A DNA stretch of 64,000 bases from Eledone cirrhosa (taxonomy: Eukaryota). Positions 2,655 through 60,203 of this stretch are shown in pieces. Under the pieces are notes generated by a model. The model had not been told where the DNA came from, made no database searches, and saw only the letters and a program-made list of their open reading frames with translations. The first letter of the stretch is position 1; the number at the start of each line of letters is the position of its first letter. The stretch spans positions 59,086,001 through 59,150,000 of the forward strand of contig OZ024741.1 in the NCBI GenBank assembly GCA_964016885.1. The letters are read 5' to 3'. Both the position numbers and the translations under genes were made by a program.

Positions 2655-3950
2655 GGTGTGAAGAGATTATGAATATGTTTCTGTGTTTATTATAAATTGT
2701 CTACATATGCTGACTACAATAGACATTGTTCAATCATATGCAATACTTAATTATTTATTACACTTCATCAGAAAGCCTATAGTAGTGGAATTCAACTGTT
2801 CACTATGAGGTAGAATTCAGTAATGAGATTTTCGTTTAAGAAAATGTAAATAAGTTAAAAATTGCATGAAATACAGTCAGTTAGTGTGATAGTAGAGAGA
2901 GGAGGGAGTGGGGGTAAAGAGTTTCACACTATCATTCCATATGCTATGATGTGGAACTTATAGATGAACACTTTCATCCAACACACAAATTCCATAAAAT
3001 ACTAAATAGAGACATGATCCGACTATCATATTCCACCACAGCTAACCTGGGCATTTCATTATGAAATTGAATAACAAACGCTTCCGCAGGTATAGCAATA
3101 CCAACAGCCAAGGGAAACCCAGACATAATCTGAACCTTCAGCAACATCCGCAGCCTCCAACACTGAGCAGACCAGCACCAACAAATACCAATGCCTCTTC
3201 CACTTTATGTGCACATATAACATTTTCCTGTCCATACCAGAATGAAAGATGCTCCTGTGAACTATGTTTGGTGGAAATAATTAAAATAGTGACTGGCAAG
3301 GACCTTCTAAATTCCCGGCAAGATAGGATATTTAATTGCAATCACAAGGTTCTAAAAATCTTTGCTAAATACAAACTGGATTAGAACAAGATTTGATCCC
3401 TAATACCTAGGTTTTACTATATCCTATTTGGTACATTTCCTGTGGCATTCAAACTTTTCACACCCAATGGATTTAGTAATATTCAAAACAATCCCATTTT
3501 CTTAATTCCTTTCCTCCTTACCCACTCTAGCCTTCTCTTAATCTCTGCCTTATCTTTCTCTGCCCCTCTCTTTATACCTTCTCTACCACCATATATGGTA
3601 AACATCAAAACCTTCACCTACAAGAATAATTATTCCACATCACAGTACATGGAATGATAGTGTGAAACTATTTACCCCCACTCCCTCCTCTCTCTACTAT
3701 CACACTAATTGACTGTATTTCATGCTATTTTAAACTTATTTACATTTTCTTAAACGAAAATCTCATTACTAAATTTTACTTGGTAGTGAACAGTTGAATT
3801 TCACTACTATTGGCTTTCTGATGAAATGTACTTAATAATTAAGTATTGCATATGATTGAACAATATATATTGTAGTCAGCATATGTAGACAATTTATAAT
3901 AGACACAGAAACATATGTCAAAGCAAATAAATTCATAATCTCTTCATGCC
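2655..3950 (+). mobile_element. old Penelope-like (Naiad-like) element with inverted pseudo-LTR arms
   Basis: Inverted arms 2655-2956 / 3633-3950; internal remnants HKFHKILNRDMIRLSYSTTANL and CSCELCLVEIIKI...LLNSRQDRIFNCNHK (GIY-YIG C-terminus). Confidence 0.8.
3813..3924 (+). ncRNA. type I hammerhead ribozyme motif with long stem II
   Basis: GCTTT-CTGATGA-(83 nt)-GAAA-CATATG-TC-AAAGC; stem I GCTTT/AAAGC, palindromic stem-loop III, GUC site. Confidence 0.75.
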
Positions 3951-5675: not shown

Positions 5676-6209
5676 AACACAAAATCATTGCTGAATACAT
5701 CAGTGCAGAATACATCAGAGGAAAAATGAATAGAGATGGACTAGCTATAAATAGAGAAGGAAGGGAGAGAGGGAAAATAAAAAAAAATATGTGTATGAAT
5801 TATTATAGAGAGGGGAGAAAGAAAGAGTAAGTTAAAGGTGAATTCATGACTTAAAATTTATAAAGAGATTGGTAAAAAGAAAACAAGAATGAAACTGAAG
5901 ACAAATTATGAAAGAAAAAAAAGATAAAGGCTTATATTTTAAAGGGAAATAATCTGCTATGTATAATTCTTTGAAAATAAAAAAAGGAAAACAAATTCAA
6001 TGTTGAAAGATATTATAAAGTACATGGATGAGTAAATAAATTTTAGATATAGGAATTGTTAAATTATTTAAGCAATTTTGTGGTTAAGAATGAATAATTA
6101 GTATGGTCAAATAATATTATTCATAGTTATAACAATTATTTAAATTTGATGAAAAATTTCAATTCATATAAAAATACATATAAAAGGTAACAGTGATATA
6201 TGATTTGAA

Positions 6210-9125
6210 TCATCATCATCATCATCATCATTTTACGTCCGCTTTTTCCTGCTTGCAAGGATGGGACGGGTCCTATTCAGCACAGCATCTCTCCACTTGT
6301 GACGGTCCTTCGTCATCTCCACCATGAGCTTCAGCGATCTGAGGTCTGCTCTCACCACCTCTGCCTATGTTTTTCGTGGTCTACCTCTACTACGTATTCC
6401 TTCAACTGGCATTTCCTGGCACTTCTTCACCCATCGGTCATCCTCCATGCGCATCACATGTCCATACCATCTCAGTCTCCTCTCCCGCACACTACAATCT
6501 ATCCCTCTCAAACACAGTTTCTCTCTCAACACATCCACACTCAGTTGTTCACGCACATTGACATTGCACATCCAACGGAGTATGTTTGCCTCATTTCTCT
6601 CCAGCCGTCGCATATCCTCTGCAGTTGCTGCCCATGTCACACTACCATGCAGCATCGTGCTCCTCACACAGGCATCATATAACCGGCCTTTCGTATGCAG
6701 AGAGAAACCCTTCTTCGTCAGTAGAGGAAGCAGCTCCCAAAACTTCTTCCAACCCGTCCTTATTCTAGATACTATGGCCTCGGAACACCCCCTCCCATGC
6801 TAATCTGATGTCCTAGGTACCGGAAGCTATCAATCACTTCTATAGCACCCACCTGCATTTGAAAAATGTGTCTATCAATGTGACTTCTACTGTCAAATTT
6901 CCCTGTACATCTACTGCATACGTATTTCTCCCTACCTGTTAGTTTTCCTGCTATCCGACTACATCTTTTGTGTAGCCAAGATCTGCATTGTATGCATTTT
7001 ATAGAATTTATGACAGTTCCTTTACTGCATATCGAAGATGGCCATTTCCCTGACAGAATCAGAGTTTTGTCCTCTTTTCTACTTATCAACACTTTTGTTT
7101 TAGCTATGTTTACTCTCAGTCCTCTTGATTCCAACTGCTGTTTCCATAGCCAGAATTTATTCTCTAGCTCCTCTACTGATTCTGCTATAAGCACCAGATC
7201 ACCAGCATAGAGAAGTTCCCATGGGCAGCCAGTATTAAACTCCTCTGTTATGGCTTGGAGGACTATAATGAACAAGAGAGGACTGAGGACAGAATCCTGA
7301 TGTACACCTACTTGTATCTGGAATTCCTCACTAAACTCCATTCCTACCCTCACTTTACTGACAGCACCTCTGTACAAAGTTTTCACTGTCCTCACAAGCC
7401 ATTCCTCAGCACCTAGTTTCCTTAGGGACCAACAGATGACAGATTGGGGTACCCTATCAAAGGCCTTCTCTAGGTCAACAAAAGCTGAGTATAGTGGCTT
7501 ATTCTTCTCTAAGAACCTCTCTTGTAATTATCTCACCAAGAAGAGGGCATCTGTTGTACTTTTCCCAGGCACAAAACCAAATTGCATCTCATCTACTTTG
7601 ACCCTTTCTCTAATTAGTTGTGCTAATATCCTTTCTGCCACTTTCATAACCTGATCCAGCAGTTTTATACCCCTATAATTGCTCCTCTCCAGACCATCCC
7701 CTTTACCTTTGTAGCAATTTATGAGAATACTGGTGCACCAGTCTTTGGGTATCACACCGCCATATATAGCCTGATTGATGATACGTGCAACCAGTTTAGT
7801 ACCTACGTCCCCTGATGCCTTCAGCATCTCAGCCCGACTGTCCAGCAGCCTTACCATTTTTCATTTCCTTAATCGCCTCTTGGACCCTATATTCGTCAAT
7901 CTCAATAGCTGGTCACTCTGTCGGATCTACTGAGAGTAATTTCTCTCTGTCCTATTCGTTCTCCACATTCATTAGTCTCTCATAGTGACATTTCCAGGAC
8001 TCCTTTTTCTGATCATTTGTGACACTAAGTACACCGGCGGCATCATTCCGGACACATTTATCTCCAACAACATCCTGATTTGCATTGACACACTGCCTTA
8101 CCATGTGGAACACTGCACGTCTCTGATCTTCCCATAGCAGAACATTGGCAAACCTCCTACTCTCAGCCTCCCTTCATGCTAAGTACACCTGACGTCTAAC
8201 TTCCTTCTTAGTATATCCTTTTTCCAAGCCTTCCATGCTAGTCTTTTGTCTCTAATGGCCCTATATACCGTGCTGTTGCACCACCAAGTCACTCTCTCTC
8301 TGGTTGGAGCTTTGCACCAGCCACAAGTTTCATCAGTAGCCTGCAGTAAGTTGTCACGTAACAAATTCCAGTTCTCACCTATGTCATACAACTCTAAATC
8401 GTCTTCTTTTTCGTCATACACATCTTGAATGGCTTTCCTAAATTTGTATTTTAGTGAAAGGTATTTTAGCTTCCAGACCTTTCTTCTCCACACCTTCCTG
8501 TATGTCTCATTCCGTCTCTTGCTTACTGAGATATCACTAACGACTAACCTATGCTGTGGTGTACATTCTTCCCCAGGGTATGCCTTGTTATTTGACACCA
8601 TCTGCCTATCCCGCTGCCTAGTAAGAAGTCAATCTGGCTTATATGCTCGCCTGATTTATAGGTTATTAGGTGGTTAGCAGGTTTCTGGAAGTTAGTGTTG
8701 CAAATAGTTAAAAGCAGTCTTTCTCCTCTTTACCTAGGCCTGCCTGGGGAGCATAGGCAGAGAGGATTGTCAGTAGTCTCCTGCCTACAACTAATCTAAA
8801 CTTATTCTATTATTAACTCAAACTACCTCTATTGTCTTATCGATCCATCTCTCAGGAAAATGCCTACTCCTGCTAACCCATCATCCTTACCTACCCAGAA
8901 AAGCTTATAACTAAGATGTTTGCTGAGCGACATTAGCTATAACCTGAAAAGAAGAAAAGATCAACATCAACGATAACTACTGAGCTGCAGGTTTGATGTC
9001 GGAGTTAACCCAGTTTCCTGAGATGCCCTCTCCTAGAAGAATGCCCTGACAAGGGCTAGGGTCCTTTACTCCCAGTGGTTTAACTGTGCGATCAGGTATC
9101 CAGCCCGATTATTTCTATGTCCCCG
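6210..9125 (-). mobile_element. RTE-clade LINE with internal deletion, frameshifts and stops
   Basis: APE remnants (8430-8930), RT (NYRGIKLL, QFGFVPGKSTTDA, LLYAGDL), C-terminus RRLRWYGHVMRM...RGRPRKT, (CAT)n tail at 6210-6231. Confidence 0.95.
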
Positions 9126-10647: not shown

Positions 10648-10943
10648 TATACCTTCCAGCCAGATGATTGAACGTCTGAAAGTATATACTTTCCTTATGC
10701 ATATTAACGGCTGAGCAGCCTAATTTGCATATCGAGTGAGTTAATCGGCCGGACGCACCGAAAACGATAAACGGAAAAAATGAAACGAAATTTCATTTCT
10801 CACTCTTAGTACGGCTGTTACTTAAATATAAGTATGTATACGTACATACATATATGTATACAGACGTACATATATATATGTGTGCATGTATGTATATATA
10901 TATACATACTACTGTACGTCTGTATACATATATGTATGTACGT

Positions 10944-11003
<60 letters not shown>

Positions 11004-11033
11004 AGATCAAAAGATGGTTAAAAGAGTTCCATG

Positions 11034-11104
11034 TATTTTATTATGCGCATTTCAAAAACAAATATCATCATGCAATAACATTTGCGTTTTCGTCAGATAA
11101 AATA
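11034..11104 (-). ncRNA. type I hammerhead ribozyme (inverted-arm copy)
   Basis: Reverse complement of 14348-14418. Confidence 0.88.
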
Positions 11105-12244
11105 GGGAGACATGATATGAAGGTTAAAACACACTTGTGAATAGTGCAGTATAAATCAACATATGAAAAGTAGTTTTAGATTGATGTGTAATATTATGAA
11201 AAAAATTGAGGGGGGGGGGGGGTGGAAAGGATGAAAAAGAGGAGGAGATGAGAGTAAAAAGTGAAGGGGGAGGAGTATAATGAGGAAGGATGAGATAGGA
11301 GGAGAGATGGGTGATAGAGAGAGAGAGGTAGCTTTTATAACTGAGAAAAATATATTGTTTTACATAGAGAGGTTGAAAAACCGTTGGAAGATAATATATA
11401 AATTAAAAGAATTTGAAAATTAACGAAGAGAAAAATTTTAGAATAATGTTAAATTAAGGTATGTATATTTAAGGGTTTAATAATATGTGCGATGAAAAGA
11501 AATTGTTAATATGTATTAAGAATAATATTTAAGGGTTTAATAATATGTGCGATGGAAAGACATTGTTGATATGTATTATTAAAAAATAAAAAAATATAGC
11601 AATAGTAATGTAATTAAGGATATATTGTGAAAGAAGTAGAAGAGTGGATGAATAAGTGTAATATGTATAAGTTAGATGAGCATGAAAGGGAGAAAAAAAT
11701 AATGAATTGAGGATGAATATTCTAACGTCAAAAAAATGTTTATGTTTACGAAGGATTTTTTCAAGGTGATATGAAGTAAGAATATATTGTGCTGAGTAAT
11801 AATTGTTTCTACGTTAGGCACAATGATAATTGAGAAGTATCTAGGAAGAAAAGGTACAGATTAGAGGTTAGAAATTAAAAGAAAAAGAAAAAAAAAGAAA
11901 AAAGGAAAAAAGAAAGAAAGGGAAGTGATAAATAGGAGTGATATAGAATAAGCAACTGGTATTATATAATGTATAATAAATAACATTGAAATAAGGTAGA
12001 AAGATGGGTATATTTTTAATGAAATATATATGTATATATATGTGACTTTGATAAAAGGATTTTAAATTGATAAAGTATTAGATATTAGCTGTATACTTTA
12101 TGGAATGTTCTGTGGAATTTATGCAAGCAGAGAGAAAACAAGTCAGTGCGTCTATTTATTATAGAATCTAAATTAGATATAATGGTAAATTTTTCACATA
12201 AACAGAGATTGCATGTCTTGGATAGAGAACTATTCAAGTATGTT

Positions 12245-12560
12245 TGTTTATTTTTCTTATTCAATTTGTTGAACCAGCCAATCACTTCAGAAGTATCAAA
12301 CCATAAATTTAAGTTCAAAGAAGAGCAATTAGAACGAACCTGTGTGATAATTCTATCCAAGATGGCTTTGCTAACAACCCCAGATCTGATTTAGAGGGGG
12401 CGATTAGTCTAACAGGTAGTTCAGTACGAAAATTGTTTTTGTGATCCTTGAGATTTATCCTCGGAGTTCTTGGGAGGAATGGTTCAGTCTTTTTTCCGAT
12501 GCCAAGTTTTGACATAATCTCAGAAGCTTCAAAGTTTATGGATTCTAAATCTCTGTTAAT
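12245..12560 (-). pseudogene. Penelope-like RT N-terminal fragment
   Basis: INLKDHKNNFRTELPVRLIAPSKSDLG...NLWFDTSEVIGWFN. Confidence 0.85.
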
Positions 12561-14347
12561 AATAATATTCCTAAATTATTCTTTAGTGCCTTAAATAAAT
12601 GCTTCCCTCCCTCACATATCTATAGTAAAATATTTAACAAACACACTATAAAATTTTCCTCCAACATTATCTCTAAACACAACAATAAAATACTAAATCT
12701 CTTCCTTCCAACACTGAATATCAATAATAGTAATAGTACTCCCGACGTCATTGTAAACTCTAGGCTAATTTCTGCAAACCCAAATACAACGTCAAATGCA
12801 ACTTCACTAAATGTTCTTAATCCCATTCTAAATCAAGAAACTATTATTCCTATCGTAAATGACTTCTCCAATCCAATTCCTTCTATAGATGACACTAGAT
12901 CACTTGTTAATAACTCTGTTAATCTCTCTAATCGCAATTGCAATTGCCCTGTTAAAAATAAATGTCCTCTCAACAACCATTGTCTTGAAAAAACTTAATC
13001 TACGAATGTAAAGTTATAAATGACACCAATTTCTTTACCTATTTTGGCTCCACTTCCACCTCCTTTAAAGCTCGTCTTTATAATCATCATTCGTCTTTTA
13101 AATACCAACTTAAAAGAACCAACACGGCACTCTCAGAACTCATATGGTCCTTGAAAGAGAAAAATATTAACTATAACATCTCTTGGAAGAAGGTTTGTTC
13201 TGCTTCTCCATACTTGAATAGTTCTGTATCCAAGACATGCAATCTCTGTTTATGTGAAAAATTTACCATTATATCTAATTTAGATTCTATAATAAATAGA
13301 CGCACTGACTTGTTTTCTCTCTGCTTGCATACATTCCACAGAACATTCCATAAAGTATACAGCTAATATCTAATACTTTATCAATTTAAAATCCTTTTCT
13401 CAAAGGCACATATATATATATATACATATATATTTCTTTAAAAATATACCCATCTTTCTACCTTATTTCAATGTTATTTATTATACATTATATAATACCA
13501 GTTGCTCATTCTATATCACTCCTATTTATCACTTCCCTTTCTTTCTTTTTTCCTTTTTTCTTTTTTTTCTTTTTCTTTTAATTTCTAACCTCTAATCTGT
13601 ACCTTTTCTTCCTAGATACTTCTCAATTATCATTGTGCCTAACGTAGAAACAATTATTACTCAGCACAATATATTCTTACTTCATATCACCTTGAAAAAA
13701 TCCTTCGTAAACATAAACATTTTTTTGATGTTAGAATATTCATCCTCAATTCATTATTTTTTTCTCCCTTTCATGCTCATCTAACTTATACTATTACACT
13801 TATTCATCCACTCTTCTACTTCTTTCACAATATATCCTTAATTACATTACTATTGGTATATTTTTATATTTTTTAATAATACATATCAACAATTTCTTTC
13901 CATCGCACATATTATTAAACCCTTAAATATTATTCTTAATACATATTAACAATTTCTTTTCATCGCACATATTATTAAACCCTTAAATATACAAACCTTA
14001 ATTTAACATTATTCTAAAATTTTTCTCTTCGTTAATTTTCAAATTCTTTTAATTTATATATTATCTTCCAACGGTTTTTCAACCTCTCTATGTAAAACAA
14101 TATATTTTTCTCAGTTATAAAAGCTGCCTCTCTCTCTCTATCACCCATCTCTCCTCCTATCTCATCCTTCCTCATTATACTCCTCCCCTCCACTTTTTAT
14201 TCTCATCTCCTCCTCTTTTTCATCCTTTCCACCCCACCCCCTCAATTTTTTTCCCAATATCACACATCAATCTAAAACTACTTTTCATATGTTGATTTAA
14301 AACTACACTATTCACAAGTGTGTTTTAACCTTCATATCATGTCTCCC

Positions 14348-14418
14348 TATTTTATCTGACGAAAACGCAAATGTTATTGCATGATGATATTTGTTTTTGA
14401 AATGCGCATAATAAAATA
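14348..14418 (+). ncRNA. type I hammerhead ribozyme
   Basis: TATTTTAT-CTGACGA-16-bp stem II-GAAA-T GCGC A-TA-ATAAAATA; 8-bp stem I, AUA site after 14410. Confidence 0.9.
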
Positions 14419-14542
14419 CATGGAACTCTTTTAACCATCTTTTGATCTTATATATTATTTATACTCCAGTCCTACAAACTGTAGAGTGCTACTTATCCGA
14501 TATCTGCATTGCTTTATTGTACTACAATAAAACTCACCTCCT

Positions 14543-14613
<71 letters not shown>

Positions 14614-14623
14614 AACCAGTAAG

Positions 14624-14717
14624 ACCCCGACAGCTGAGCTCAAGCCGTTTCGACGGCTAATTCTGGACTAAATGAAAATTTATCCTGGTATTTAAATAGC
14701 CGATCTTCTCAAGGGGT
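14624..14717 (-). ncRNA. hammerhead ribozyme, U3-A8 core variant (inverted-arm copy)
   Basis: Reverse complement of 18240-18333. Confidence 0.8.
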
Positions 14718-15716
14718 AATTCCATATATGGTCAAAGTGATTGTCAAAAATCAGTAGTAATTCTGTGGTTGCAAATTAGTAGGGGAGATGGTGGCTAAAC
14801 CTGCCTGTAGGAGAAGGAGGGGAGGGGGTGGAGTAGACCCAATCAAGCGTTAGTAGTGCCAGCTACAGCTGGGCATGAGGTCAAAGAAGATACAGGGGAG
14901 AGGGAGGGGGAGGAAGTCGGAACGGTAGGTAGAACAATGGGGGGTAGAAATATATAGGAAAGAAAAAATACCGAGAGTGAAGAAAAGCAAATAAGTGTAA
15001 AGAAAAAAGTAAAGTAAATTAAATTCTACGACCTAGGTCTCTAGCTATTGTTAGGCTAGAATGAATAAATAAATAAAGAAAGAAAGAAGTAAAGAAAGAA
15101 ATAAAGAAATAACGAAATAAGTAAAAGAACTAGGTGGGACGGAATAGGCAAGGACCCTTTTAAGAGGTATAAGTACGTAAATGATACGGTGACGGGTCAA
15201 CAAAAGGGGCCAGAATACTAAAGAGACTACCACGAAATAAACAATAAAGGTTTCCATCCCGGGCACAATGCCAGCAACCACCCAGTGCAGCAAAGTGAAC
15301 TTGTACGAGATAATAATTCTGAGTCCCGAAAAATATATACTAATGCTAACTCTAAAAGATCTAAAACAAGCTACATGAAAGTTCGTACGAAGTAAAGGTA
15401 GAATACGGAAAAATAAATTCAGAATCCACCCCGCCCAAAAGAAAAGCGAAGAAAGAAATACTGAAACGAAAAAATAAGGCATAGGTGCCACTAAGAAATA
15501 TAGAGGGCACAGAGAATAGTGGGAGCGGTCGGAAAAAGGGGACAAGTATCCGGGGTCTAAACCAACTGCTATAAAGGGCGGAGTCCGCCAAATCTATCAT
15601 AGACTAGGGGAGGGGGTGGGGGTACTAAGGCTACAAGGGGCCAAAGGGCAGCCTCGGGTGGGCGAGAAAAGACGCCGACAAAGGAGAAGAGCTGGGGTAG
15701 AAGGACTAAGGAGAGA

Positions 15717-17122
15717 CAGTTCGACATAGAGAGCTACTATGCTTCAATCACCTTACCGCTACTTACTGCCGCATTGGACTTCGCCGAAACACTTGTGCCC
15801 ATCACTGACCAGGAAAGAAAAATCATCCTTCACGCCAGGAAGACAGTCTTACTCTTTGACGACTCTAAATGGATAAAAAGAGCTCCCGACTCACCCTTCG
15901 ACGTCAGCATGGGCGCCACGGATTCGGCGGAGGTCACAGATCTTATAGGATTATTCCTAATAGCCAAACTCACTGATATGTTTCCTGCATTCGGTGGTGG
16001 ATTGTACCGTGATGATGGACTCCTTACCCTTAAAGGGTACAACCCCAGTAGTACAGATCGGGTCCGGAAACAATTAATCAGATTCTTCCGCGACTGGGGA
16101 TTTAAAATAACCCTACAAACGTCCCTGACCCGAGTAAACTTCCTGGACGTGACCCTCGACCTCGAAAACGACCTGTACTACCCATACAGGAAACCTAATG
16201 ACAATCTGCACTACATCCACCGCCGATCAAACCATCCTAGGAACATCACAAACAACCTGGTCAAAAACATCTCCCTCCACATATCCCGTTTGTCAGCTAA
16301 TGAGCGGATATTCGATGAACATGCGCCTTATTACAACCAGGCCCTCAGGCGGAGTGGTTTCCGGGAGGAAATATCCTACTGTCCAGCTCCCATTAGCGGA
16401 ACCAGCAGGAGACACCGCCGCTCACGCAATGTAACATGGTTCAATCCTCCCCACAACGCAGAGGTGACAACTCCCATCGGGAAACTATTCTTTAGGCTCA
16501 TTGAAAAACACTTCCCATTACAACACCGCTACCACAATCTAATTAACAAAAATACCATCAAACTCTCTTACAGCACTACACCAAACTTCGCACAAAACAT
16601 CGTCTCCTCTAACAACAAAAAACTCAACCCCGATGGCAGAAATAACCTAAATAGCAGTGGAGAACCGACCAGGAGGTGTAACTGCCCGGATAGATCTATT
16701 TGCCCACTCGACAATAGATGCAGAGACCGTAATGTGATCTACCAGTGCAACGTGAGGACGGATACCTCCAACAAAGCCTATATAGGACTTACCGCATATG
16801 ACTTCAAGACCCGGCTATACCAACATAGACATACCTTCCGAAACCCGGCCCGAATCACGCCACTACACTTTCGGGCAACATATGGGACCTCAAGGACAAC
16901 AACATCACCTATGATCTCACTTGGAGATTACTGTCCAGAGCCAATTCTTACACGGGAGGACGCCGTCCGTGCAATTTATGCTCGGAGGAAACCTTACAAA
17001 TGCTGTTTTCGACGGACCAACTCCTAAACAAGAAAGATGAACTGGTTACTGCATGTAAACATAGATTGCGTAGGACTTACCTCGCCCTCAAACCCCATAA
17101 TGACCCGGGGGGGGGGGGGTAG
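15717..17122 (+). pseudogene. Penelope-like RT / GIY-YIG endonuclease polyprotein, 5'-truncated, one frameshift at ~16851
   Basis: FDIESYYAS, FDVSMGATDSAEV, GLYRDDGL, NFLDVTLDL, CNCx5Cx5C linker, VIYQC...YIGLT..FKTRLYQH, then WRLL...CNLCSEE...LLNKKDELVTACKH. Confidence 0.95.
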
Positions 17123-17162
17123 ACTAGGGCTATAACACCCCACTTGCCGATTTTGCAATGGG
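17094..17162 (+). other. possible decayed SECIS-like stem-loop
   Basis: CCCAT/ATGGG helix I, ATGA.../GA quartet, GGGGT/ACCCC helix II with expanded poly-G, apical AGA rather than AAA. Confidence 0.3.
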
Positions 17163-18239
17163 TAACCCCTGCTTGCCAAGGGAGACGTAAGATCTTCTTT
17201 GTATTCTTTTATCGCTTCCTTTATTTCCTTCCCCCCTCTCTCCTTAGTCCTTCTACCCCAGCTCTTCTCCTTTGTCGGCGTCTTTTCTCGCCCACTCGAG
17301 GCTGCCCTTTGGCCCCTTGTAGCCTTAGTACCCCCACCCCCTCCCCTAGTCTATGATAGATTTGGCGGACTCCGCCCTTTATAGCAGTTGGTTTAGACCC
17401 CGGATACTTGTCCCCTTTTTCCGACCGCTCCCACTATTCTCTGTGCCCTCTATATTTCTTAGTGGCACCTATGCCTTATTTTTTCGTTTCAGTATTTCTT
17501 TCTTCGCTTTTCTTTTGGGCGGGGTGGATTCTGAATTTATTTTTCCGTATTCTACCTTTACTTCGTACGAACTTTCATGTAGATTGTTTTAGATCTTTTA
17601 GAGTTAGCATTAGTATATATTTTTCGGGACTCAGAATTATTATCTCGTACAAGTTCACTTTGCTGCACTGGGTGGTTGCTGGCATTGTGCCCGGGATGGA
17701 AACCTTTATTGTTTATTTCGTGGTAGTCTCTTTAGTATTCTGGCCCCTTTTGTTGACCCGTCACCGTATCATTTACGTACTTATACCTCTTAAAAGGGTC
17801 CTTGCCTATTCCGTCCCACCTAGTTCTTTTACTTATTTCGTTATTTCTTTATTTCTTTCTTTACTTCTTTCTTTCTTTCTTTCTTTCTTTATTCATTCTA
17901 GCCTAACAATAGCTAGAGACCTAGGTCGTAGAATTTAATTTACTTTACTTTTTTCTTTACACTTATTTGCTTTTCTTCACTCTCAGTATTTTTTCTTTCC
18001 TATATATTTCTACCCCCCATTGTTCTACCTACCGTTCCGACTTCCTCCCCCTCCCTCTCCCCTGTATCTTCTTTGACCTCATGCCCAGCTGTAGCTGGCA
18101 CTACCAACGCTTGATTGGGTCTACTCCACCCCCTCCCCTCCTTCTCCTACTTGCAGGTTTAGCCACCATCTCCCCTACTAATTTGCAACCACAGAATTAC
18201 TACTGATTTTTGACAATCACTTTGACCATATATGGAATT

Positions 18240-18333
18240 ACCCCTTGAGAAGATCGGCTATTTAAATACCAGGATAAATTTTCATTTAGTCCAGAATTAG
18301 CCGTCGAAACGGCTTGAGCTCAGCTGTCGGGGT
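18240..18333 (+). ncRNA. type I hammerhead ribozyme, U3-A8 core variant
   Basis: ACCCC-TTGAGAA-GATCGGCTA...TAGCCGTC-GAAA-CGGC TTGAGCTCA GCTG-TC-GGGGT; GUC site after 18328. Confidence 0.82.
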
Positions 18334-18424
18334 CTTACTGGTTCCTATTACCCACTCTACTACCTCTAGTATTGAGTACTTTGGTGCGTTATGGTCCACC
18401 TGGTTCCTTACCACATTTCCTTCG

Positions 18425-18475
<51 letters not shown>

Positions 18476-18476
18476 A

Positions 18477-18509
<33 letters not shown>

Positions 18510-19768
18510 CACACCGGTGTTGTTGATTGTTGTAGATGTAGACGTTGGGTTGAAATTTGGTCGTAATAAATATAAATATTAATACAATGTATAGATTTAC
18601 ATAAACATAATCTAATATACATATATAGATATAAATACACAGATATAAAGATATATATATGCACATTTAACCTGTACTAGCGTGGAAAATAAATGTTAAA
18701 TAATGATAATGATGATACATACATTCATATACACATAAACCATGGCCTCGCAAGCTTTGTCTTACTAGTTTTCCATGAATTATAAATACAACATTTTTTA
18801 ACAATTTTGACAGATTGTTGCGTTTGTGTGACAGACAGACTAAAAAGAATGTACAGTTATTATGATATAGATTCTTTCCAAATTGATATAACCTATGTTG
18901 TCTAAGTTTCAATATCGTCATATGTCTTCTGTAACTGTACAAGTAGATTCATCAATTACCTACAGTATAGGAATCAAATTGATAATTTATATATAATTAG
19001 TTACCACAGCAACCATTTTCTATATGATATTATCAAAATCAACTTCAATTTTATTTTAGTATAACATCTTTTAATTTCACTTCAATTGTTAAGTACTTGA
19101 CTTCAAACACTAGAGATAAGGTAACTTTGAGAGGTATCACTGGCAAACACAAGAATATTGGAAACAGTTCTTCAGTTATTCACAATTTATGAATATTACC
19201 AATACTGTCTTCGTTATATCATCATCATCGTTTAGCGTCCATTTTCCTATGCTTGCATGGATTAAACAAGTCTGGCCAGATTTGACCACACCATACCTTG
19301 CCCCAATGAGGACTGTAAATTTGACCAGGTATTTTACAGCTGGATGCCCTTCCTAACACCAACCACATTTATATATATATATATGATTAAGAATAGGTTT
19401 TCAAAGAGGAATGGAAAATGATCACAGTTAAATAAGGTGTTCAATGCATTTTTAGAGAAGACACAAATCTATATCATGCAGAAATAACTTCTACATGACT
19501 AGAAATTTTGTTTAATTGAAATTATCAGAAAAGGATTTTCTTGAGGATTTTAAATGAATGAAACAATCCTAGTCTTGTAAAAATCATTTCTATACAAAAT
19601 AAATTTGTACGCATACGAAATTGCTTTTCTCACTATTTAACATATTAGTGTGCACTCTGTTTTCATTTGGGTTGGTATCTTAAGGATTCTAACTTAATTA
19701 AAACATCGACTGAGTAGGAAAACGATCAAAGATTTTCAGTCCTATCCGATGACTTCGTCTTAGAGTTA

Positions 19769-26807: not shown

Positions 26808-27324
26808 TTTGATTGTTGTTGTTGATGTTGTTATTGCTGCAGTTGTTGTTGTTGCTGCTGCTTGGTTGTTTTTGTTGTTGTTGCTGCTGTGGTTGTTTTT
26901 GTTGTTGTTGTTTTTGTTGTTGCTGCTGCTGCAGTTGTTTTTGTTGCTGCTGCTGCTGCAGTTGTTTTTGTGGTTGTTGCTGCTGTGGTTGGTTTTGTTG
27001 TTGTTTTTGTTTTTGTTGTTGTTGCTGCTGTTGTTGTTGTTGTTACTGCTGCAGTCGTTTTTGTTGTTGCTGCAGTTGTTTTTGTTGTTGTTGCTGCTGC
27101 GGTTGTTTTTGTTGTTGCTGCTGTGGTTGTTTTTGTTGCTGTTGCTGCTGTGGTTGTTTCTGTTGTTGTTGTTGTTTTTGTTGTTTTTGTTGTTGCTGCT
27201 TCTGTAGTTGGTGTTGTTGTTGTTGTTGCAGTTGTTATTGTGGTTGGTTTTGTTGTTGCTGCTGCTGTGGTTGTTTTTGTTGCTGTTTCTGCTGTGGTTG
27301 TTTTTGTTGTTGTTGCTGCTGTAG

Positions 27325-27372
<48 letters not shown>

Positions 27373-27840
27373 TTGTTGTTGTTACTGCTGCTGTTGTTGT
27401 TGTTGTTGTTGTTGTTGTGTTGTTGTTGTTGTTGCTGTCGTTGTTTTTGTTGTTGTTGCTGCTGTTGATGCTGTTGTTGTTGTTGTTGTTGCTGCTGTAG
27501 TTGTTGTTGCTGTAATTGTTGTTGTTGCTGCTGTAGATGTTGCTGTAGTTGTTGTTGTTGCTGCTGTAGTTGTTGTTGTTGTTGCTGCTGTAGTTGTTGT
27601 TGTTGCTGCTGTAGTTGTTGTTGTTGTTGCTGTAGATGTTGTTTTTGTTGCTGCTGCTGTAGTTGTTGTTGTTGTTGCTGCTGTAGTTGTTGTTGTTGTT
27701 GCTGTAGATGTTTTTTTTTGTTGCTGCTGTAGATGTTGTTCTTGTTGCTGCTGTAGATGTTGTTCTTGTTGCTGCTGTAGATGTTGTTCTTGTTGCTGCT
27801 GTAGATGTTGCTGTTGTTGTTCTTACTGCTGTAGATGTTG
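26808..27840. repeat. degenerate (GTT/GCT)n trinucleotide array with higher-order units
   Basis: About 1 kb of GTT/GCT/TTT/GTA triplets with recurrent 21-27-nt units. Confidence 0.95.
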
Positions 27841-29449: not shown

Positions 29450-32052
29450 TATAGGTGAGCTATGAGGCCCTTTTACCAGCACTTTCCCTTCCACCCACAC
29501 ACACCAGCCACTTACCCCCGATGCCGCACGGTGCCTCAGTCCCCGGCCCCACGCCCCATCCCCCCAAGCCGACACCTGCAGCACTTGCAGCACCACTAAC
29601 AGATGGAAGAGGGGCAGAACTGTTCGGGGTGTGGCTGCTTCCACCACCTCACCTTTGTTGGCTTGACATGTCGAGCCTCCAGTGCCCTTGCAGCGTGGAG
29701 ATGCAGGAACTGCTCTTCCCCTCGTCTGCCCAGCTACGACCGTCTGGCACACCACCAGATGAGACAGCGAGCTTGCCTGACGCCCAAGCCTCGCTGGTCA
29801 ACATTGCTTGGCTCAGGCGGCTCCGGAAGATTCCACTCAGGATCCCCAAAGCGACCCAGGTGCCAGTAGCCGATGCCCTCGCCTCCTTGATTGAGAGTGC
29901 CCTGGACTCCAACCGAGCCATCGACTGGGAGCGAGTCTTTTATTTCGCCCCACTCGCTCTCGTTCTCTCCAGCTCTGGCGCTGACGGGGTCGGCTGGTCG
30001 ACAGCAGCTTTTGTGAAGGCCAATGTTTTGTCCTTTGGGCAATCACCCATTCCAAGCGTGCCTAGGGACGCCACACACCCTACCCTTGGGTAACCCCAAT
30101 CCTCCACCCCTGAGGCCAGCGCCAAGCATTTGTGCGACCGCGTAAATGCTAAATTAATCATGTGTGATGTCTCAGCTGCAGTCAGAGTGGTTGCCTCAGA
30201 GGACACTGTCCTCCAACCACCGGGGAGGTCCTGGCTGCCCTGCGACTCAAGCACCCTGTGTCACCCGCTGATCTCAGACCCATACCCCCACTTGCTCCTT
30301 GTGGCTTCTGATGCAGACATCATGTCCGCCATCAAGTCCTTCCCAGCTAGCAGCAGCGGAGATGCTGATGGTCTCCGACCAGGCCACCTCAAGGAGCTGC
30401 TATTCCCTCTCTCTGCTGAGGCCAGGCGCCGCCTTCTGAGTGCAATTGTGGCACTCACCAATAGGCTCATCCATGGCACCCTGGACCCTCACACCCGAGG
30501 TCTATTTTTTTCGGCTAGCCTCACTGCTCTGAGGAAGAAAGAGGGTGGCATACGCCCCATTGCCGTGGGCAATGTCTTCCGGAGGCTGGCTGCCAAGGTG
30601 GTCTGCAGGTCCATAACACCTGAACTGGGTGAGGAGTTGAGTCCGGTGCAACTGGATGTCGGCATGTCTGGTGGCTGTGAGGTGGCCGCACATGCAACGA
30701 GGGAGTTCTTCAACAGCTGTCCACTGGAACCGGCATCCAGGGACTCCAGGCACCTCATTGTCAAGCTTGACATGAGGAATGCCTTCAACTGCTTACACCG
30801 GGACCATCTGCTCGATGCCTGCCTCAGCCGAGCCCCCTCTGCCTACCTGCTGGCCTACCTGTCGTATGGAGCCCTGAGCATGCTCCTTGCTGCTGATACG
30901 GTCATACCGTCGGCCACTGGGGTCCAACAGGGTGACCCTTTGGGACCCCCCCCCCTCCTGTTTGCCCTTGGTATAGACCACATCGCCCGCAGTATCACGG
31001 CCCCTCTCAATATCTGGATGATGCTACATTGGGCGGGCCCATACAGACTGTCTGCCATGACCTACAATCGGTGGTTCCTGCCCTGGCAGGAATCAGCTTC
31101 CAGGTCAACTCGGCCAAGTCAGAGGTGGTGAATGTTAGCCACGATGCTGAGAGCTTTGCAGCCTCCATCTCGGACATGCGGTCCATTCTCCACCAGGTAC
31201 AGGTGACCCCTAAAGAGGATGTCCTCATCCTCAGGTCACTGATCCACCCGCCGGCCATCAACTCCACCATCAGGTCCAGGCTTCAACAACTCCAGACTCT
31301 CACAAGCCGACTGGGCTTGATCAACGGCCACCCAGCCCTCTTTCTGTTGAGGAACTGCTTCACCATGCCGAAGCTCCTCTATACCCTTTGCAGCGCTCCG
31401 TGCTACACCCACACACTTCTCCTCGCTGACCTCGATACTTGTATCCGACAAGCAGCCGAGGAGATATGCAACATTAAGTTTGACGATAGTGGATGGCAAC
31501 AGGCCACTTTACCTCTCAGGTATGGCAGCCTTGGCCTCTGGTCCCCAATCTCACTGGCTTTGCCGGCATATTTTTCATCAGTAACCTCGTACTGCATCCT
31601 CGTCAGCAGGGTTCTTCTAAACACAATAGACCCTCTGTATTCAGAAAACGTGAGGCCGCCTGTGAGACGTGGGACCAGCTGGGACTTAGCCCAGTAGACG
31701 TCCCTCCTCCTTCTCCCCCTGTTGACGTCAAGTCCCCCCAAAGCACTTGGGATGCCATCCAGTGCAGCCTGGCCTCAGACAGGCTCAGGCGCCAGCTCAA
31801 CCAGCACCGCCTTGCATGTTTTCATGCGGTCTCCAAACCCCACAGTGGTGCCTGGCTCCATGCCTTGCCCTCCTTCTCCACTGCCACGCAGCTAGACAAC
31901 AATAGCCTGCGCATCGACGTTTCCTTGAAGCTCGGCCTCCAGATCTGCGAGCCACACCAATGTCGCTGCGGATCCACCGTGGACTTTTTCGGCCTCCACT
32001 CACTTCCTGTCACCACAGTGCCGGCCGCCTTCCACGCCATGCTGCCCTCAAA
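29450..32052 (+). mobile_element. CRE-clade non-LTR retrotransposon, frameshifted, 3'-truncated before the endonuclease
   Basis: DGLRPGHLKE, KKEGGIRPIAVGNVFRRL, KLDMRNAFN, GVQQGDPLGP, LDDATL, QATLPLRYGSLGL, SGAWLHALP, CRCG...GLH..SC zinc knuckle, RH. Confidence 0.9.
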
Positions 32053-32139
32053 GGTCACGTTCATTCCATATTTAATTATGGTCGGTATGTTTATGTTTTG
32101 GACATTTATTTATATACCGCTGTTATGTGCTCGTCATTA

Positions 32140-33429
32140 TCTATATATATAAAACTGTGGTTGTCTGTCTGTCTATCGATTTTTGGCACACATCTCCTCT
32201 TAGAATCTCTCACGGAATTGCACCGAAATTGCTATACTTGTACATTGAGCCCTAGCGAAGACATCGGAAAAAAAATATTTCAAATTGACCCACCCTATGT
32301 GACGAAATCGAATATAATGTATCGATTTTTGAGCGTAAGTTATCAGTTATTTCCCTTTGTTCTGTTTACATTGAGCGTCTTACGTAAAAAATTACGCTGG
32401 CTTTCTCAGCGTTTAAAATGACATTAACACAATACACGAACAGTTGTCGAGCCAGCAAAATATTGACCTGCAAAATTCATCAGTTCGAACACTAAGCTTC
32501 CGTTTTGCTTCATTTCCATCTAAAAGCATTTTAAAACAATATTTTTACTTGAAAACAAGTCTATTTAAAGACTACGTAAAACAAGCAAATATTTCGTCGT
32601 TAGGCGTGCAGACAGACAGTCGTGCAGACAGACAGTCGTGCAGAGAGGTGATATACGCGTGCAGACAGATAGTCGTGCAGAGAGGTGATATAGGCGTGCA
32701 GACAGACAGTCGTGCAGAGAGGTGATATAGGCGTGCAGACAGACAGTCGTGCAGAGAGGTGATATAGGCGTGCAGACAGACAGTCGTGCAGAGAGGTGAT
32801 ATAGGCGTGCAGACAGACATAACTGATAATTTGGTTACGCTAATGTTTTTCTCTGCGTTGCCGTGTTTACATTTTCGATCTTTGTTAATAAATAACCAGT
32901 GCAGTTTCTATCCCCAGCATCCTCTTTTGTTATAACATTCGGGTTATCGTTATGTTTTCTTAACTTCATAAGGCATATTGTTGGTTGAGGGAATATTAAT
33001 CAAAAACACCACATGCAAGTCTGCACAGTAGACACTACAGTTTTTAAGCCAAGAAAGAAACTTAACATTGTAACTTTAACACAGCTACTGAGCGACCCCG
33101 AGCAACGCCGGGCTTTACTGCTAGTAACTGATAATTTGGTTACGCTAATGTTTTTCTCTGCGTTGCAGTGTTTACATTTTCGATCTTTGTTAATAAATAA
33201 CCAGTGCAGTTTCTATCCCCAGCATCCTCTTTTGTTATAACATTCGGGTTATCGTTATGTTTTCTTAACTTCATAAGGCATATTGTTGGTTGAGGGAATA
33301 TTAATCAAAAACACCACATGCAAGTCTGCACAGTAGACACTACAGTTTTTAAGCCAAGAAAGAAACTTAACATTGTAACTTTAACACAGCTACTGAGCGA
33401 CCCCGAGCAACGCCGGGCTTTACTGCTAG
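32140..33429 (+). mobile_element. non-autonomous Helitron with tandemly duplicated 3' end
   Basis: A|TCTATATATATAAA start, (GTCT)n, hairpin CCCGAGCAACGCCGGG and CTAG|T ends at 33124 and 33429. Confidence 0.88.
32603..32818. repeat. 37-bp minisatellite inside the Helitron
   Basis: GGCGTGCAGACAGACAGTCGTGCAGAGAGGTGATATA, about 5.5 copies. Confidence 0.95.
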
Positions 33430-33864
33430 TATTAAATATATATATATAGGTACAGCTATTAGAATACTTCTTAAGTTATTAATTGAGAATATTATCATAT
33501 ACATAATTCTGTACAACACCTTTTAACTTATTAATGCATTCCACCTATAAATACATGTTCCCTTAATGTAATTCTCAAAGGAATTCAGCATGACACATCA
33601 TGTAACAAGGTTGACTCCTAGAATTACAGTAAAATGTAAAATAAAGTAACTTGTTTGTGTATCAAGTGCTTAACAATGACACACAAAGCACTTATGTACA
33701 TAATCATCTGGTTTTTGCATTGGACTTGGAAAACTATAAGTTTAATAAATATGAGATTGTTTACATGGTATCTGGCAGTTCTAGTGAATCCTTAAATTCA
33801 CAGTTGTATAAGAATATAGTAATATGATGCTTACAGGATGAAAACACAAACACATAATATATAC

Positions 33865-34998: not shown

Positions 34999-35226
34999 AT
35001 ATAGATAAATATAACACAGAATATATACCTGCCAAGAGTGAATATATAAACCAATAATTGTTTCTACTTTAGGCACAAGGCCAGCAATTACCCAGTGCAT
35101 TACTGATAAAATAAAGTACCAGTAATGCACTGGGTAATTGCTGGCCTTGTGCCTAAAGAAGAAACAATTATTGGTTTATATATTCCTTCTTGGCAGGTAT
35201 ATATTCTGTGTTATATTTATCTATAT
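34999..35226. repeat. near-perfect inverted repeat, 107-bp arms, 14-nt spacer
   Basis: 34999-35105 is the reverse complement of 35120-35226 with about 3 mismatches; includes a SINE 3' tail. Confidence 0.95.
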
Positions 35227-36334: not shown

Positions 36335-38466
36335 AGTGAAAAATAAATAAATAAGCATTTGAGAAGACTCAGTCAAAACTGAACATGAATGTGTCATAAA
36401 ATGGTATCAGAATGTACTAGAAAACTAACAAAATATATTTAAGGACAGGTGACTTATACAGTAAATAAAACTATGTGAAACAAAATGGCTGAGAGAGAGA
36501 TTTAACTACCATGACTAGAGGGAGATAGGAGTAAGATGAGATGTACGTATACAAACAGAACATAACATCAACAACAACAACAAAGAAATATAAGAGACAG
36601 AAATATAAAACACTAAAGGTCACTTATTGATTCCTCATGCATATCTCCAGCCTTTATCTTTTCTAAGTATCTTTAATCTTTGTATGTTATCGATTTCACG
36701 TCATTTCCAGAGTCTTATGAAGACGCCGAGATCCTTTAAGACATCTTTGTTCAGCGTCTCATTCTGGTTGCAAGTCTTTTATTTTGGCTGCAGTTCTTGA
36801 CAACCGCCACACAACACTTCTTTTCCTTCTCTTTCTCTCTCACTCTATTATAGAATTTCTTTTAAGGTCTCCAGTTTGATTCTTGTTCTCATTGATAAAG
36901 TGCAGGAAAGTGAACTTACATTTGATACAAAATGAAAAGTTTACTGACTGATGGATTTTAAATTGCGAGAGAGGCGACATTCGGGCTGGCTGGCTTAATA
37001 ATAATAACATTCCATAGTTTAGCTTGAGAATAACCAGCTCAGTAAGAATGAAAGTGCAACTGTTACAAAATAAAGAAAAACAAAATAATGAACAAAAAAG
37101 AGAAACATTATTAGTATTTTGTCCTTGAACACAATGGCCCATTGGGAAAAGGATGAATTAGGTGAGAGAAGGAATTGAGGAGGTGAAGTTGGAGGGCAAA
37201 GTGAGTGTGGGAGGAATTGTAATGGTGTGTTATAACAATGGAAGTAACACAATGATGTCAACGGTGATCACAATGGATGATACTAATGATGAAACAACTT
37301 TTAATAATGGATGGTGTTGATGAAGACTATATTGATAATGATGGTAATAGGGATGGTGGGGATGATATATCTACAAATACTATATATATATATCTATATA
37401 TATATATATATATATAAACAGATCTGTATAATAGATATGTGTCAATTACTATCAAGAAAAATAAAGTTGTAGAAATCTACTGATTGCTGTCTGTGTTGTA
37501 TTTGCAGATGTGGTGTTGTTCTGCTACTGCTGCTGCTGCAGTTGTTTAGCCCCAGGACAGCTCCGATTGAGCAATCATTCCTTCAAAGACATTCCATCCT
37601 TGACCATCCCTTCTTTGTACTTGTTTCAAGCACAGTGTAACTCAGATTATACTATCTAATGCAGGGTTCTCAAAAATGCAGCCTGCATACTACCTTTCTA
37701 TGGCCCATGGCAGACAATTTTTTTTCCCTGTTTTAATAATATTTATAGTACAAATTATTGTGATTTACCCAGGAATAAAATAGAAACAAAAAAAAACCCC
37801 TGGAATTTATCAAAAGTGAAAATGGAGAAAAAGGAATTTAAAAAAAAGTAGAAATGGAATTAAGGAAAATTTGAAACAGAAAATTTGTCCCCTACATTTT
37901 GTATTAATATCACATATCCCATTTATTACCATATGTGTATTAATTTTGATGAAATAAAAAAAGCAGTCTATTGGCTGTAATGCAGATTAGCATTATAACT
38001 GGTAGAAATCATATCTGCTCATTCATCTCACTTTTGGCTCTCCTCCGGGACATAACGGCGCTTTTAAGTCCTTGAGTTTGAGACCTTTGATTGAATATGT
38101 AATTCTTTTTTTCAATTTTGTAAAGAGTTACTTAGCTGGTCTATTTGGCAGAGTCAATTGAGCATTGTATATTTGTTCTGGTTTTCTACTTTCTGAGTTC
38201 AAATCCTGCCAAGGTCAACTTTACTTTTCATCCTTTCAGGGTCAATAAAGTAGCATCCCAGTGCTGGTGCAGCCCTCTCTCATTCCAGCCGTCAAATCCA
38301 CCATCACCTACACCTATGTACCTATGCGAGAAATACATTTTACACAGCTATTGCATTAAATATATATTCTAGGCAAACCATATATACATTAAATCAGAAT
38401 GGATGCAGCAAAAACCTGTTAGATTATACTCACCAGAGTACTCAATACTTGGGGTAGTAAAGTATG

Positions 38467-38589
38467 GTAATATAAAGCATTCGGGATCCTGACAGATGAG
38501 CTCCTGACATTTCAACAGCATTTGTGTTCAGAAATAGCTGTTGAAACAGCAGAAGCTCAGCCATTGGGGTCCCAAATCCTTCATATTAC
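38467..38589. other. imperfect ~120-nt hairpin
   Basis: GTAATAT...GGGATCC...TGAGCT...TTCAACAGC / GCTGTTGAA...AGCTCA...GGGTCCC...ATATTAC. Confidence 0.7.
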
Positions 38590-41273: not shown

Positions 41274-42521
41274 TACGATGCGCATCAAAAAAAGTATCCG
41301 ACTTTATTTTTTCCCTCGAAAATGTCACCTTGCACCCAAATCCTTTGGGTGGGAGGTGACACTACCCTTCTTGCATATGCGTGAAAATGTTCACACTGGT
41401 AGACCACGCCAATTCCCAGCTGTTACACCTAGAGTACAGATATGTAGTGTGTGCTCGTCAGATTTTTGTTTCCATGCAAGATGACTGAGCACATCAAGCA
41501 GAGATATTGCATCAAGTTTTGCCAAAAGCTTGGTGATACTCAAACCATCGGCTTTGGCGATGATGCCATGGACAAAACTCAGTTCAAGGAGTGGTACAAC
41601 TGCTTCAAACATAGCTACATCTCAGTGAATAATGAGGCATTCAGGCAGGTCATCCACAAGCTGAAATGTGGAACTGATTGAGAAGGTTTGGCAAATAATT
41701 ATGGAAGACTGTCGTGTAACAATGCAGGAAATTGCTCATAAAGTGGGAATAAGCACAGGATCAGTGCATTCTAGTTTAAAGGAGAATTTGTGCATGCAAA
41801 GAGTGTTGGTGAAATTCGTCCCCAAGTTGTTGGTGGAGCAGCAGAAGCAACTCCGCATGGAAATCGCTCACAACATGCTGGACTCTGCAAACCACAATCC
41901 AGACTCCATGAAGACTATCATCACTGGTGATGAGACATGGGTTTATTGTTATGACCTGGAAACTAAGTTCCAGTCCTCTCAATGGAAGTATGTTATCACC
42001 ATGGCCCCCAAAAGCACAACAGGTTCGCAGCAACGTGAAGGTAATGTTGACCTGTTTCTTTGACTCTTGTGGTATTTTTCATCATGAATACACGTCACAA
42101 GGTCAAACAATTAATAAGGAATCCTACCTGGAGGTTATACGTCACCTCTCTGATACTGTGTGGTGAAGAATTGACAACTTCACCATGACAATGTGCCTGG
42201 TCATTCTGCTCACATAATACAACCTTTTTTGGTAAGGAACAACACACCACTTGTTCGACAGGTTCCCTACTCTCTTGACTTGGCACCATGTGACTCCTGG
42301 CTCTTCCCTAATCTGAAAACAATGTTAAAAGGGAAGGTATTTGAGTCACGAGAGGAAATTATGAGAAAAGCGACTGCAAAACTTCATAGCATTCCAGAGG
42401 TGTTACCAGCAGTGACAGAACCGCTGGGAGAGTATTTTGAAAGCAATTAAATAAAATTTGTGAAATGTACAAACATTTTTTTTATGCCCAAAGGTTGGAT
42501 ACTTTTCAAACGCACATCATA
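41274..42521 (+). mobile_element. mariner DNA transposon, full length but degenerate
   Basis: ~28-bp TIRs with TA ends; QRYCIKFC, KFVPKLL, IITGDETWVYCYD, HHDN, PYSLDLAPCD (DD34D). Confidence 0.95.
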
Positions 42522-50619: not shown

Positions 50620-51270
50620 TACTAGGGTCATTTGAAAAGTTCATAAGCTGACCAAGATGCTCTCATGGAATGACCAAATGAGGTTTATTTTTCAACATAG
50701 TCCCTGGAAAGAAACAATGCAGTTATTAATAAGAAGAGTTGAAATTAATGCATGCAAGATTTCACAGTCAGTCTATAAACTTTTCCGCTGACTCTCATAT
50801 GTATTAGATTTATGAATTAAAGTAAGTAAACTGCAAAACGAGATATGCCATTGCAAGCCCGTATTGTTCTCCCGCCACGAACGAAATTTTCCCATTTGAT
50901 TATAAATGATTAATTACACTGTGTACTCCTGGAATAGAAACTATGGAGTATCCAAGGGTTGATAAAAAATTGATATATTTAAAAATCAGTACAAGTTTGA
51001 ATCTCATTGAAGGTACTGGGGCAGTTTCAATCATGTTTCTGTTTATTACTGGTTCATATCTCATGCTTACTTAATTACAAGGGTTGGCTAAAAAGTTCAT
51101 AGGCTGACTCTGAAGAACTGACGCTAGAGCTGTGAAATCTTGCATTAAATTCAAATCTTATTAATAACTGCATTGTTTCTTTCCAGGGACTATGTTGAAA
51201 AATAAACCCCTTTTTTGTTATTCCATGAGAGTATCTTGGTCAGTCTATGAATTTTCAGCCAAACTTTGTA
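50620..51270. mobile_element. two copies of a mariner-type MITE in inverted orientation
   Basis: 50620-50799 and 51076-51270 are reverse-complement homologues; TA ends, TIR core AAAAGTTCATA.GCTGAC. Confidence 0.8.
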
Positions 51271-60125: not shown

Positions 60126-60203
60126 AAGTATCGTCTTCCTGTCTTCCTCCGGTTGCAACGTTTTTTGAAATATTCACTTCTGCGTTCACAGATTGACTTT
60201 GTT

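Follow-up and report, generated by a model that had tools for sequence, protein, structure and literature searches.

We analysed 64,000 nt of the Eledone cirrhosa genome (assembly GCA_964016885.1, contig OZ024741.1, positions 59,086,001 to 59,150,000 of the forward strand). This whole stretch is referred to as the window, and coordinates are window positions unless they are said to be those of an element. Two Penelope-like retroelements, E1 on the left and E2 on the right, adjoin in one (TA)n microsatellite. Each is a fold-back, with an inverted and a direct arm placed head to head around the remnant of an open reading frame (ORF). We denote the short, tailless 3′ end of an element by S and the long, tailed 3′ end by T. 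The original prediction, made from the sequence alone, described both fold-backs, and the arrangement is borne out. The arms of E1 (10989-12242 and 13209-14463) are 97.3% identical, with 21 mismatches and 13 gap columns in 1261, and those of E2 (14609-15716 and 17237-18348) are 98.9% identical, with 8 mismatches and 4 gap columns in 1112; hammerheads, tails and (TA)n flanks are present in both. The pseudo-long terminal repeats (pseudo-LTRs) of the two elements are unrelated, as had been stated, and BLAST of one against the other gave no match. Measured from hammerhead stem I, the inverted arms stop after about 40-44 nt (E1) and 15 nt (E2), in line with the 15-40 nt first noted. The tails are slightly shorter than the 80-90 bp given for them, at 78-83 bp in E1 and 77 bp in E2. 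For E1, the arms, ORF remnant and tail were rightly recognized, but a third piece, a 308-bp reverse transcriptase (RT) fragment, was overlooked. The features are as follows.

10949-10993, no strand: (TA)n target tract, left flank, within a (TA)n repeat at 10870-11003
10994-12242, minus: E1 inverted arm, with the last ~150 bp of the ORF, the 3′ untranslated region (UTR) and a hammerhead at 11033-11104; stops at the S end
12243-12550, minus: E1 inverted fragment of the RT N-terminus, 308 bp, family unit 547-858
12551-13366, plus: E1 ORF remnant, frameshifted, with thumb, CxCX5C linker, GIY-YIG domain lacking CCHH, and CxxC and CxH motifs
13209-14459, plus: E1 direct arm, with the ORF end and 3′ UTR/pseudo-LTR
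14348-14419, plus: E1 type I hammerhead motif, canonical core, palindromic stem III; predicted cleavage after 14410
14460-14541, plus: E1 tail, from S end to T end, first bulged hairpin at 14463-14487
14542-14611, no strand: (TA)n tract common to both insertions
14612-15716, minus: E2 inverted arm, with the 3′ UTR and a hammerhead at about 14621-14720; stops at the S end
15717-17102, plus: E2 ORF remnant, 5′-truncated at RT motif A, with RT core, thumb, CxCX5C linker and a frameshifted GIY-YIG endonuclease
17237-18348, plus: E2 direct arm, 3′ UTR/pseudo-LTR
18240-18333, plus: E2 type I hammerhead motif, U3-A8 core, long loop II; predicted cleavage after 18328
18349-18425, plus: E2 tail, from S end to T end, first bulged hairpin at 18354-18377
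18426-18509, no strand: (TA)n target tract, right flank

On a full-length copy of E1, the RT fragment corresponds to positions 547-858, while the start of the inverted arm lies at 2332 and that of the direct part at 1638. The fragment at 12243-12550 is joined to the inverted arm by a jump of ~1.5 kb along the element. The E1 family carries a ~60-residue asparagine-rich insert between thumb and linker (12549-12998 in the window, and in loci L102 and L111), which resembles N-rich inserts described for rotifer Penelope elements. The truncation point of E2 at 15717 (unit position 846) recurs in locus L087, where the inverted arm is different; several other E2 insertions stop at 804-844, which is partly a consequence of the query used.

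Searches of the same genome retrieved 58 stretches of 9.9 kb that included natural full-length ORFs of both families (L068 and L084 for E2, L102 and L111 for E1). Copies of E1 and E2 elsewhere in the genome are 96-99% identical, as in young families. The units are 3.6-3.7 kb long, and the proteins of the two families are 41-42% identical to each other. Both families encode, in a single ORF, an RT followed by a C-terminal GIY-YIG endonuclease, which upholds the proposed Penelope-like identity. The proposed membership of the Naiad clade fails. As described by Craig et al. 2021 (PMC8557442), Naiads resemble E1 and E2 in (TA)n targeting, inverted copies, a one-sided tail and occurrence in cephalopods, but they have an N-terminal endonuclease, DKA and CCHH motifs and no canonical hammerheads. 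Here the domain order is reversed. Among the best 120 homologues, the RT precedes CxCX5C in all 109 that have both, DKT is present in 113, and RW[KR] in 114. Both families have DKT, read from other genomic copies as the window copies lack that part, and the aligned RWK column reads RWR in E2 and RWI in E1, differing in the third residue. Both window remnants have the CxCX5C linker, with CxxC and CxH around conserved E and N and without CCHH; a pattern search found paired cysteines between GIY and YIG in none of the 120 homologues. Altogether, the motifs given for the Hydra clade are common to 109-118 of these 120. A Pfam scan gave no match on E1 or E2, a result to which we attach no evidential weight.

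These motifs, together with a hairpin that recurs in published consensus sequences (described below), lead us to assign E1 and E2 to the Hydra clade. As characterized in PMC8557442, that clade shares with them the single ORF with RT and then GIY-YIG, the DKT, RWx and CxCX5C motifs, the absence of CCHH, the CxxC and CxH motifs, the hammerhead and insertion into (TA)n; its table holds one octopus member and one entry with a 5′-truncated inverted copy. The units described there are <3 kb, shorter than ours. Neptune and Nematis, two clades that have a CX2-5CxxC linker and CCHH in the endonuclease, were rejected on the CxCX5C linker and the absence of CCHH. Non-LTR retrozymes are described as non-coding head-to-tail tandem units with a hammerhead in each (10.64898/2026.07.22.740005), and this class was rejected on the head-to-head arrangement of coding remnants.

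The pseudo-LTRs of E1 and E2 hold predicted hammerheads, which fits the Hydra clade. By manual reading, the E1 hammerhead has a CUGANGA core and a palindromic stem III, and that of E2 has a U3-A8 core and folds at minimum free energy into a three-way junction; its position 7 varies freely between E2 copies, matching expectation. A U3-A8 core differs from the Hydra hammerheads of PMC8557442, although U3-A8 covariants and dimer-type stems III are known in Penelope-like elements (PMC4209133). An older E2 subfamily (L004, L005, L007, L008 and L012) has an apparent C3 with A8, a mismatch, where the young one has U3-A8. Rfam reported no hammerhead at gathering score in E1 or E2, which likewise carries no evidential weight, and the folding z-scores of the hammerheads (-0.67 and -1.18) and of the tails were not significant against shuffles.

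We surveyed the 3′ ends of other copies. The E1/E2 set comprises 154 loci, with 108 chains that have outward 3′ ends on both sides. Four were dropped (L117, L131 and L051 as likely duplicates, and a spurious match in L073). The remaining 104 chains comprise 90 with one S and one T end, one with two S ends (the composite L079), none with two T ends, and 13 with an end at neither site. In a subset picked by RT sequence, blind to the ends, there were 44 S+T and one S+S chain (L079), before the drops. A second sample of 40 stretches at tailed ends, taken in positional order along one contig (C1), gave 33 S+T pairs, one true T+T (L165) and one doubtful S+S (L170, without a TA flank), as well as 4 chains with an undefined end and 20 single-ended E2 chains. 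At least 4 of 16 single T ends in this sample held a short S arm that BLAST had overlooked. Two further apparent T/T pairs (L180 and L194) proved to be separate insertions. Four further families were found with a distant protein query (one duplicate locus was dropped and one pair is uncertain), and all 36 of their pairs are S+T. Over the stretches sampled from the six families, 159 pairs have unlike ends and 3 have like ends. One tailed and one tailless end, in either orientation, is thus a near-strict rule, of which the main text of PMC8557442 gives no count.

In each of the six families the S and T ends are two discrete sites, 70-88 nt apart, so the consistent arm ends anticipated for these elements are found family-wide. 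The tails here are 77-88 bp long, against 30-40 bp stated for other clades in PMC8557442. That the inverted arm lacks the tail holds for E1 and E2 in the window but is not general: among fold-backs with one arm >1.5 kb, that arm carries the tail in 21 cases and lacks it in 14. Of the 90 S+T fold-backs, 25 have a tailless arm that extends further than the tailed one, 25 show the opposite, and in 40 both arms extend equally far. Exact E2 end junctions number 7,441 (S) and 22,549 (T) genome-wide, with none for reversed controls; their ratio is not meaningful because the two search patterns cover different subfamilies. Most copies are miniature fold-backs with stubs of ~190 bp in E2 and ~430 bp in E1 (for example L014-L030 and L155-L194), which could pass for miniature inverted-repeat transposable elements; as their junctions differ, they look re-made each time and not spread as a unit. 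Both arms of these miniatures end at one hotspot, which for E2 lies within hammerhead stem II/loop II; 44 of 115 tailed arms and 51 of 95 tailless ones end there. Insertions of a tail only, with (TA)n on both sides, were also seen (L179:5909-5985, L162, L176 and L180).

The suggested (TA)n targeting applies genome-wide: TA adjoins 245 of 277 S or T ends but 10 of 51 5′ ends, with duplicates still included. The side-by-side placement of E1 and E2 is real but not special. Another Hydra end lies within 150 bp of 53 of 400 sampled ends from the six families, and 41 of these face an end of another family, two of which are the window's own. Such placement arises because both families share (TA)n targeting, and the locus itself is an ordinary case of two dead copies in one microsatellite.

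Eleven of the 12 ends (two in each of six families) are followed, 2-7 nt on, by the start of a bulged hairpin built as RCTC, short stem-loop, 2-nt bulge, GAGY. The second hairpin of each pair sits just past the T end and is therefore absent from the window; it is seen in full-length copies. We also examined 77 related metagenome loci, of which 59 were listed with a match reaching the protein start and 50 had ≥150 nt upstream. Two hairpins are present in 30 of these 50 but in none of 50 reverse-strand controls and none of 50 controls from inside the ORF; spacings range from 44 to 79 nt. Watson-Crick pairing at the three positions beyond the bulge is found in 53, 34 and 36 of 62 units, compared with 29.8, 19.7 and 16.0 after shuffling, a procedure that ignores relatedness; the pattern also mis-started a few units. 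Bulges of 1, 3 or 4 nt gave no such excess. The pairs beyond the 2-nt bulge covary. The motif also occurs twice at the start of the published Hydra-1_Ajap consensus. A word search of the main text of PMC8557442 for "hairpin" and "stem-loop" returned neither, and our literature search found neither the near-strict unlike-ends rule nor the twin hairpins in print.

E1 and E2 are two independent, 5′-truncated, head-to-head Hydra insertions, each likely to have arisen when both nicked strands of the target primed reverse transcription at two fixed sites on the RNA. The GIY-YIG domain would nick the palindromic (TA)n target on both strands, and each of two RT active sites would be positioned by its own hairpin, probably on a single RNA. 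At either site, a few TA-like bases would anneal to a 3′ end of the target, from which synthesis would proceed. Both complementary DNAs (cDNAs) would end at variable points, or skip along the RNA as seen in E1, before microhomology or templated-insertion repair joined them end to end. The tail would be what lies between the two start sites, and the fold-back a by-product of integration, not a selected double-stranded RNA device. We lean, if only slightly, towards a broader claim: that a clade-wide hairpin pair places two RTs on one RNA, and that obligate double priming explains the one-sided tail and inverted pseudo-LTRs of Penelope-like elements generally.

The ends, arms and junctions bear on this proposal. 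TA-like microhomology is present at the ends: each E2 end has 3 nt, the E1 S end ~7 nt and the E1 T end an imperfect 5 nt. The arms of one E2 insertion differ by a median of 0.70%, against 2.17% between insertions (27 fold-backs; four older or gapped E2 loci were left out). In 24 of the 27 the value falls below the between-insertion median, 90 rare alleles are common to both arms, and 149 of 169 arm differences are private. For the window copies, the within- and between-insertion values are 0.52% and 2.41% (E2) and 1.12% and 3.28% (E1). These comparisons favour one template for E2, with a weak signal for E1. At inversion junctions, palindromes, repeated templated inserts or few-base overlaps are frequent, as expected for the joining of two single-stranded 3′ ends. 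Repeated templated inserts were seen in L061, L016, L033, L044, L090 and L093, and we take them to resemble the products of polymerase-theta end joining or of RT template jumps. A different structure, a head-to-tail array of at least 6 units of an internal ~1.5-kb piece of the E1 ORF, without pseudo-LTR, was found in L118.

In LINE-1 twin priming the second site is reportedly variable and upstream, and the arms barely overlap. In the Hydra fold-backs both sites are fixed, ~80 nt apart, and the same RNA stretch would be copied twice. The two processes would be alike in that both target strands prime on one RNA and the inversion is joined with short homology (PMC2837659). The closest biochemical parallel is the Poseidon element PAc of Anolis carolinensis, whose enzyme is reported to nick and extend both target strands in vitro, with two internal start sites that bound the tail, a start in or near a stem-loop, and an AT-rich target (Frangieh et al. 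2024, PMC11167929). That element belongs to another clade and is described with one AC-rich stem-loop and not twin hairpins.

Several points weigh against our proposal. To our knowledge, no biochemistry exists for any Hydra element. The T end of family F6 lacks a canonical hairpin and is the sole exception among the 12 ends. A real T+T fold-back exists (L165, the single case in the position-ordered sample), and single-ended insertions are common, as the 20 E2 chains of that sample illustrate. In the E1 family the arms differ by 1.82% within and 1.91% between insertions (16 of 27 below; mostly short arms). Arm likeness could also reflect gene conversion, assembly polishing or a pair of RNAs with a common source. 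An exact test of junction microhomology was weak, with ≥2 nt in 5 of 8 clean asymmetric junctions against 17% by chance, and 13 of 21 junctions unscorable or with insertions. Tailed arms do not pile up at the S site, with 5 of 115 stopping at 3480-3489; stalling of a tail-primed RT at the S site, which we had considered, is unsupported on this count. The anole start sites, as reported in PMC11167929, are not homologous to the target and show no strand difference in vitro, and one site per strand is not demonstrated in that account.

Other explanations were weighed against double priming. An endonuclease, and not RT initiation, could set the ends: staggered cuts ~80 nt apart, directed by the hairpins in RNA or extruded-DNA form, would resolve a tandem or inverted intermediate, possibly with two RNAs involved. 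We regard this as unlikely, although it is the strongest of the rivals. Craig et al. attribute the tail to endonuclease-mediated resolution (PMC8557442), and the Drosophila virilis endonuclease, as cited in PMC11167929, depended on the tail for recognition. Unlike ends would likewise result from one cut per strand, and the palindromic stem III of the E1 hammerhead is of the type that acts as an RNA dimer. Against this, RT starts in vitro coincide exactly with the genomic ends of the anole element (PMC11167929), the TA-like microhomology at the ends fits priming, and G-T pairs in some of the hairpin stems fit RNA. A still less probable alternative is self-priming, in which one cDNA or antisense RNA bends back at a small palindrome and then serves as template for the inverted arm. 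Arkhipova et al. 2013 proposed it for Penelope and Poseidon elements (PMC3846280), whose head-to-head inverted pseudo-LTRs, tail on one of them, and junction palindromes and microhomologies are like those seen here. Many symmetric junctions do sit on short palindromes, and the 40 of 90 fold-backs with arms of equal reach are as self-priming predicts. Palindromes would be equally needed, however, for two identical cDNA ends to anneal, and two fixed, hairpin-marked ends are left unexplained. The 25 of 90 fold-backs with the longer tailless arm argue against self-priming, because a copy cannot outreach the 5′ end of the first cDNA or gain an absent tail, and the inverted side of E1 holds an RT piece that is absent from its direct side.

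The remaining two alternatives concern what the fold-backs are for and whether they exist. Retention as sources of double-stranded RNA with a host function, as ADAR or Dicer substrates, would suit the geometry of 1.1-1.25 kb arms at 97-99% identity, and small RNAs from Penelope elements are reported in rotifer and Drosophila (PMC3846280). Read-through would form the predicted duplexes, and an ADAR/Dicer role is geometrically possible, as a candidate only; a hammerhead inside such a duplex would pair with its mirror copy and could not fold. We consider retention for this purpose very improbable. The shape is a routine integration product in thousands of copies and needs no such function to explain it. 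Arm differences are scattered and private with no A/G bias, so that no editing footprint was found in them (2 of 21 A/G in E1, 1 of 8 in E2), and no host gene was found among the long ORFs of the window, which does not exclude short exons. Lastly, inverted arms could be artefacts of assembly or of long-read chimeras. Neither contigs nor restriction-site-associated DNA (RAD) reads contained the junctions of E1 and E2 themselves, although those runs cannot show absence; confirmation of the locus therefore extends only to its being typical of a confirmed class. In raw Illumina RAD reads from three samples, ~2,000 reads each leave the element at 18348, the E2 S end, into (TA)n, and strand-switch joints of other copies are present, some from a single start. 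Arms stop at family-wide fixed sites and differ at scattered places, the latter already raised against a simple assembly mirror in the original prediction, and we find an artefact scarcely credible.

The architecture is not itself new. As the original prediction acknowledged, inverted pseudo-LTRs and tails are established: PMC8557442 describes an inverted 5′-truncated copy, microsatellite targeting and a tail that is often confined to one end, and PMC3846280 a tail on one of the inverted pseudo-LTRs. E1 and E2 are new members of a known clade. PMC8557442 names the origin of the inverted repeats and of the one-sided tail as an open question. Penelope-like elements are the closest mobile relatives of telomerase, and a near-strict rule of unlike ends, with a small covarying RNA signal before each start, makes this question testable with the existing in vitro assay. 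Rule and signal together also offer an easy way to recognize the true ends of thousands of copies.

The window contains further repeats. A third Hydra fold-back of ~1 kb, from family F5, lies at 59364-60367 with its S end on the left, its T end on the right and (TA)n on both sides, and short remnants of Hydra families F6 and E2 lie at 19538-19582 and 38428-38519. The long ORFs with Pfam matches are other transposon debris. They comprise decayed RT elements, presumably LINE-type (long interspersed nuclear element), and a helix-turn-helix (HTH) remnant that we take to be mariner transposase-like, at 6209-8628 (minus), 29455-32152 (plus) and 41665-42063 (plus), with matches to Pfam RVT_1 and HTH. 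Other inverted repeats are located at 2673-3916, 34999-35226, 50633-51257 and 56676-57175, one of them a 228-bp palindrome. The regions 26813-27821 and 32621-33431 hold a 1-kb (TTG)n tract, a 37-bp array and a 305-bp tandem duplication.

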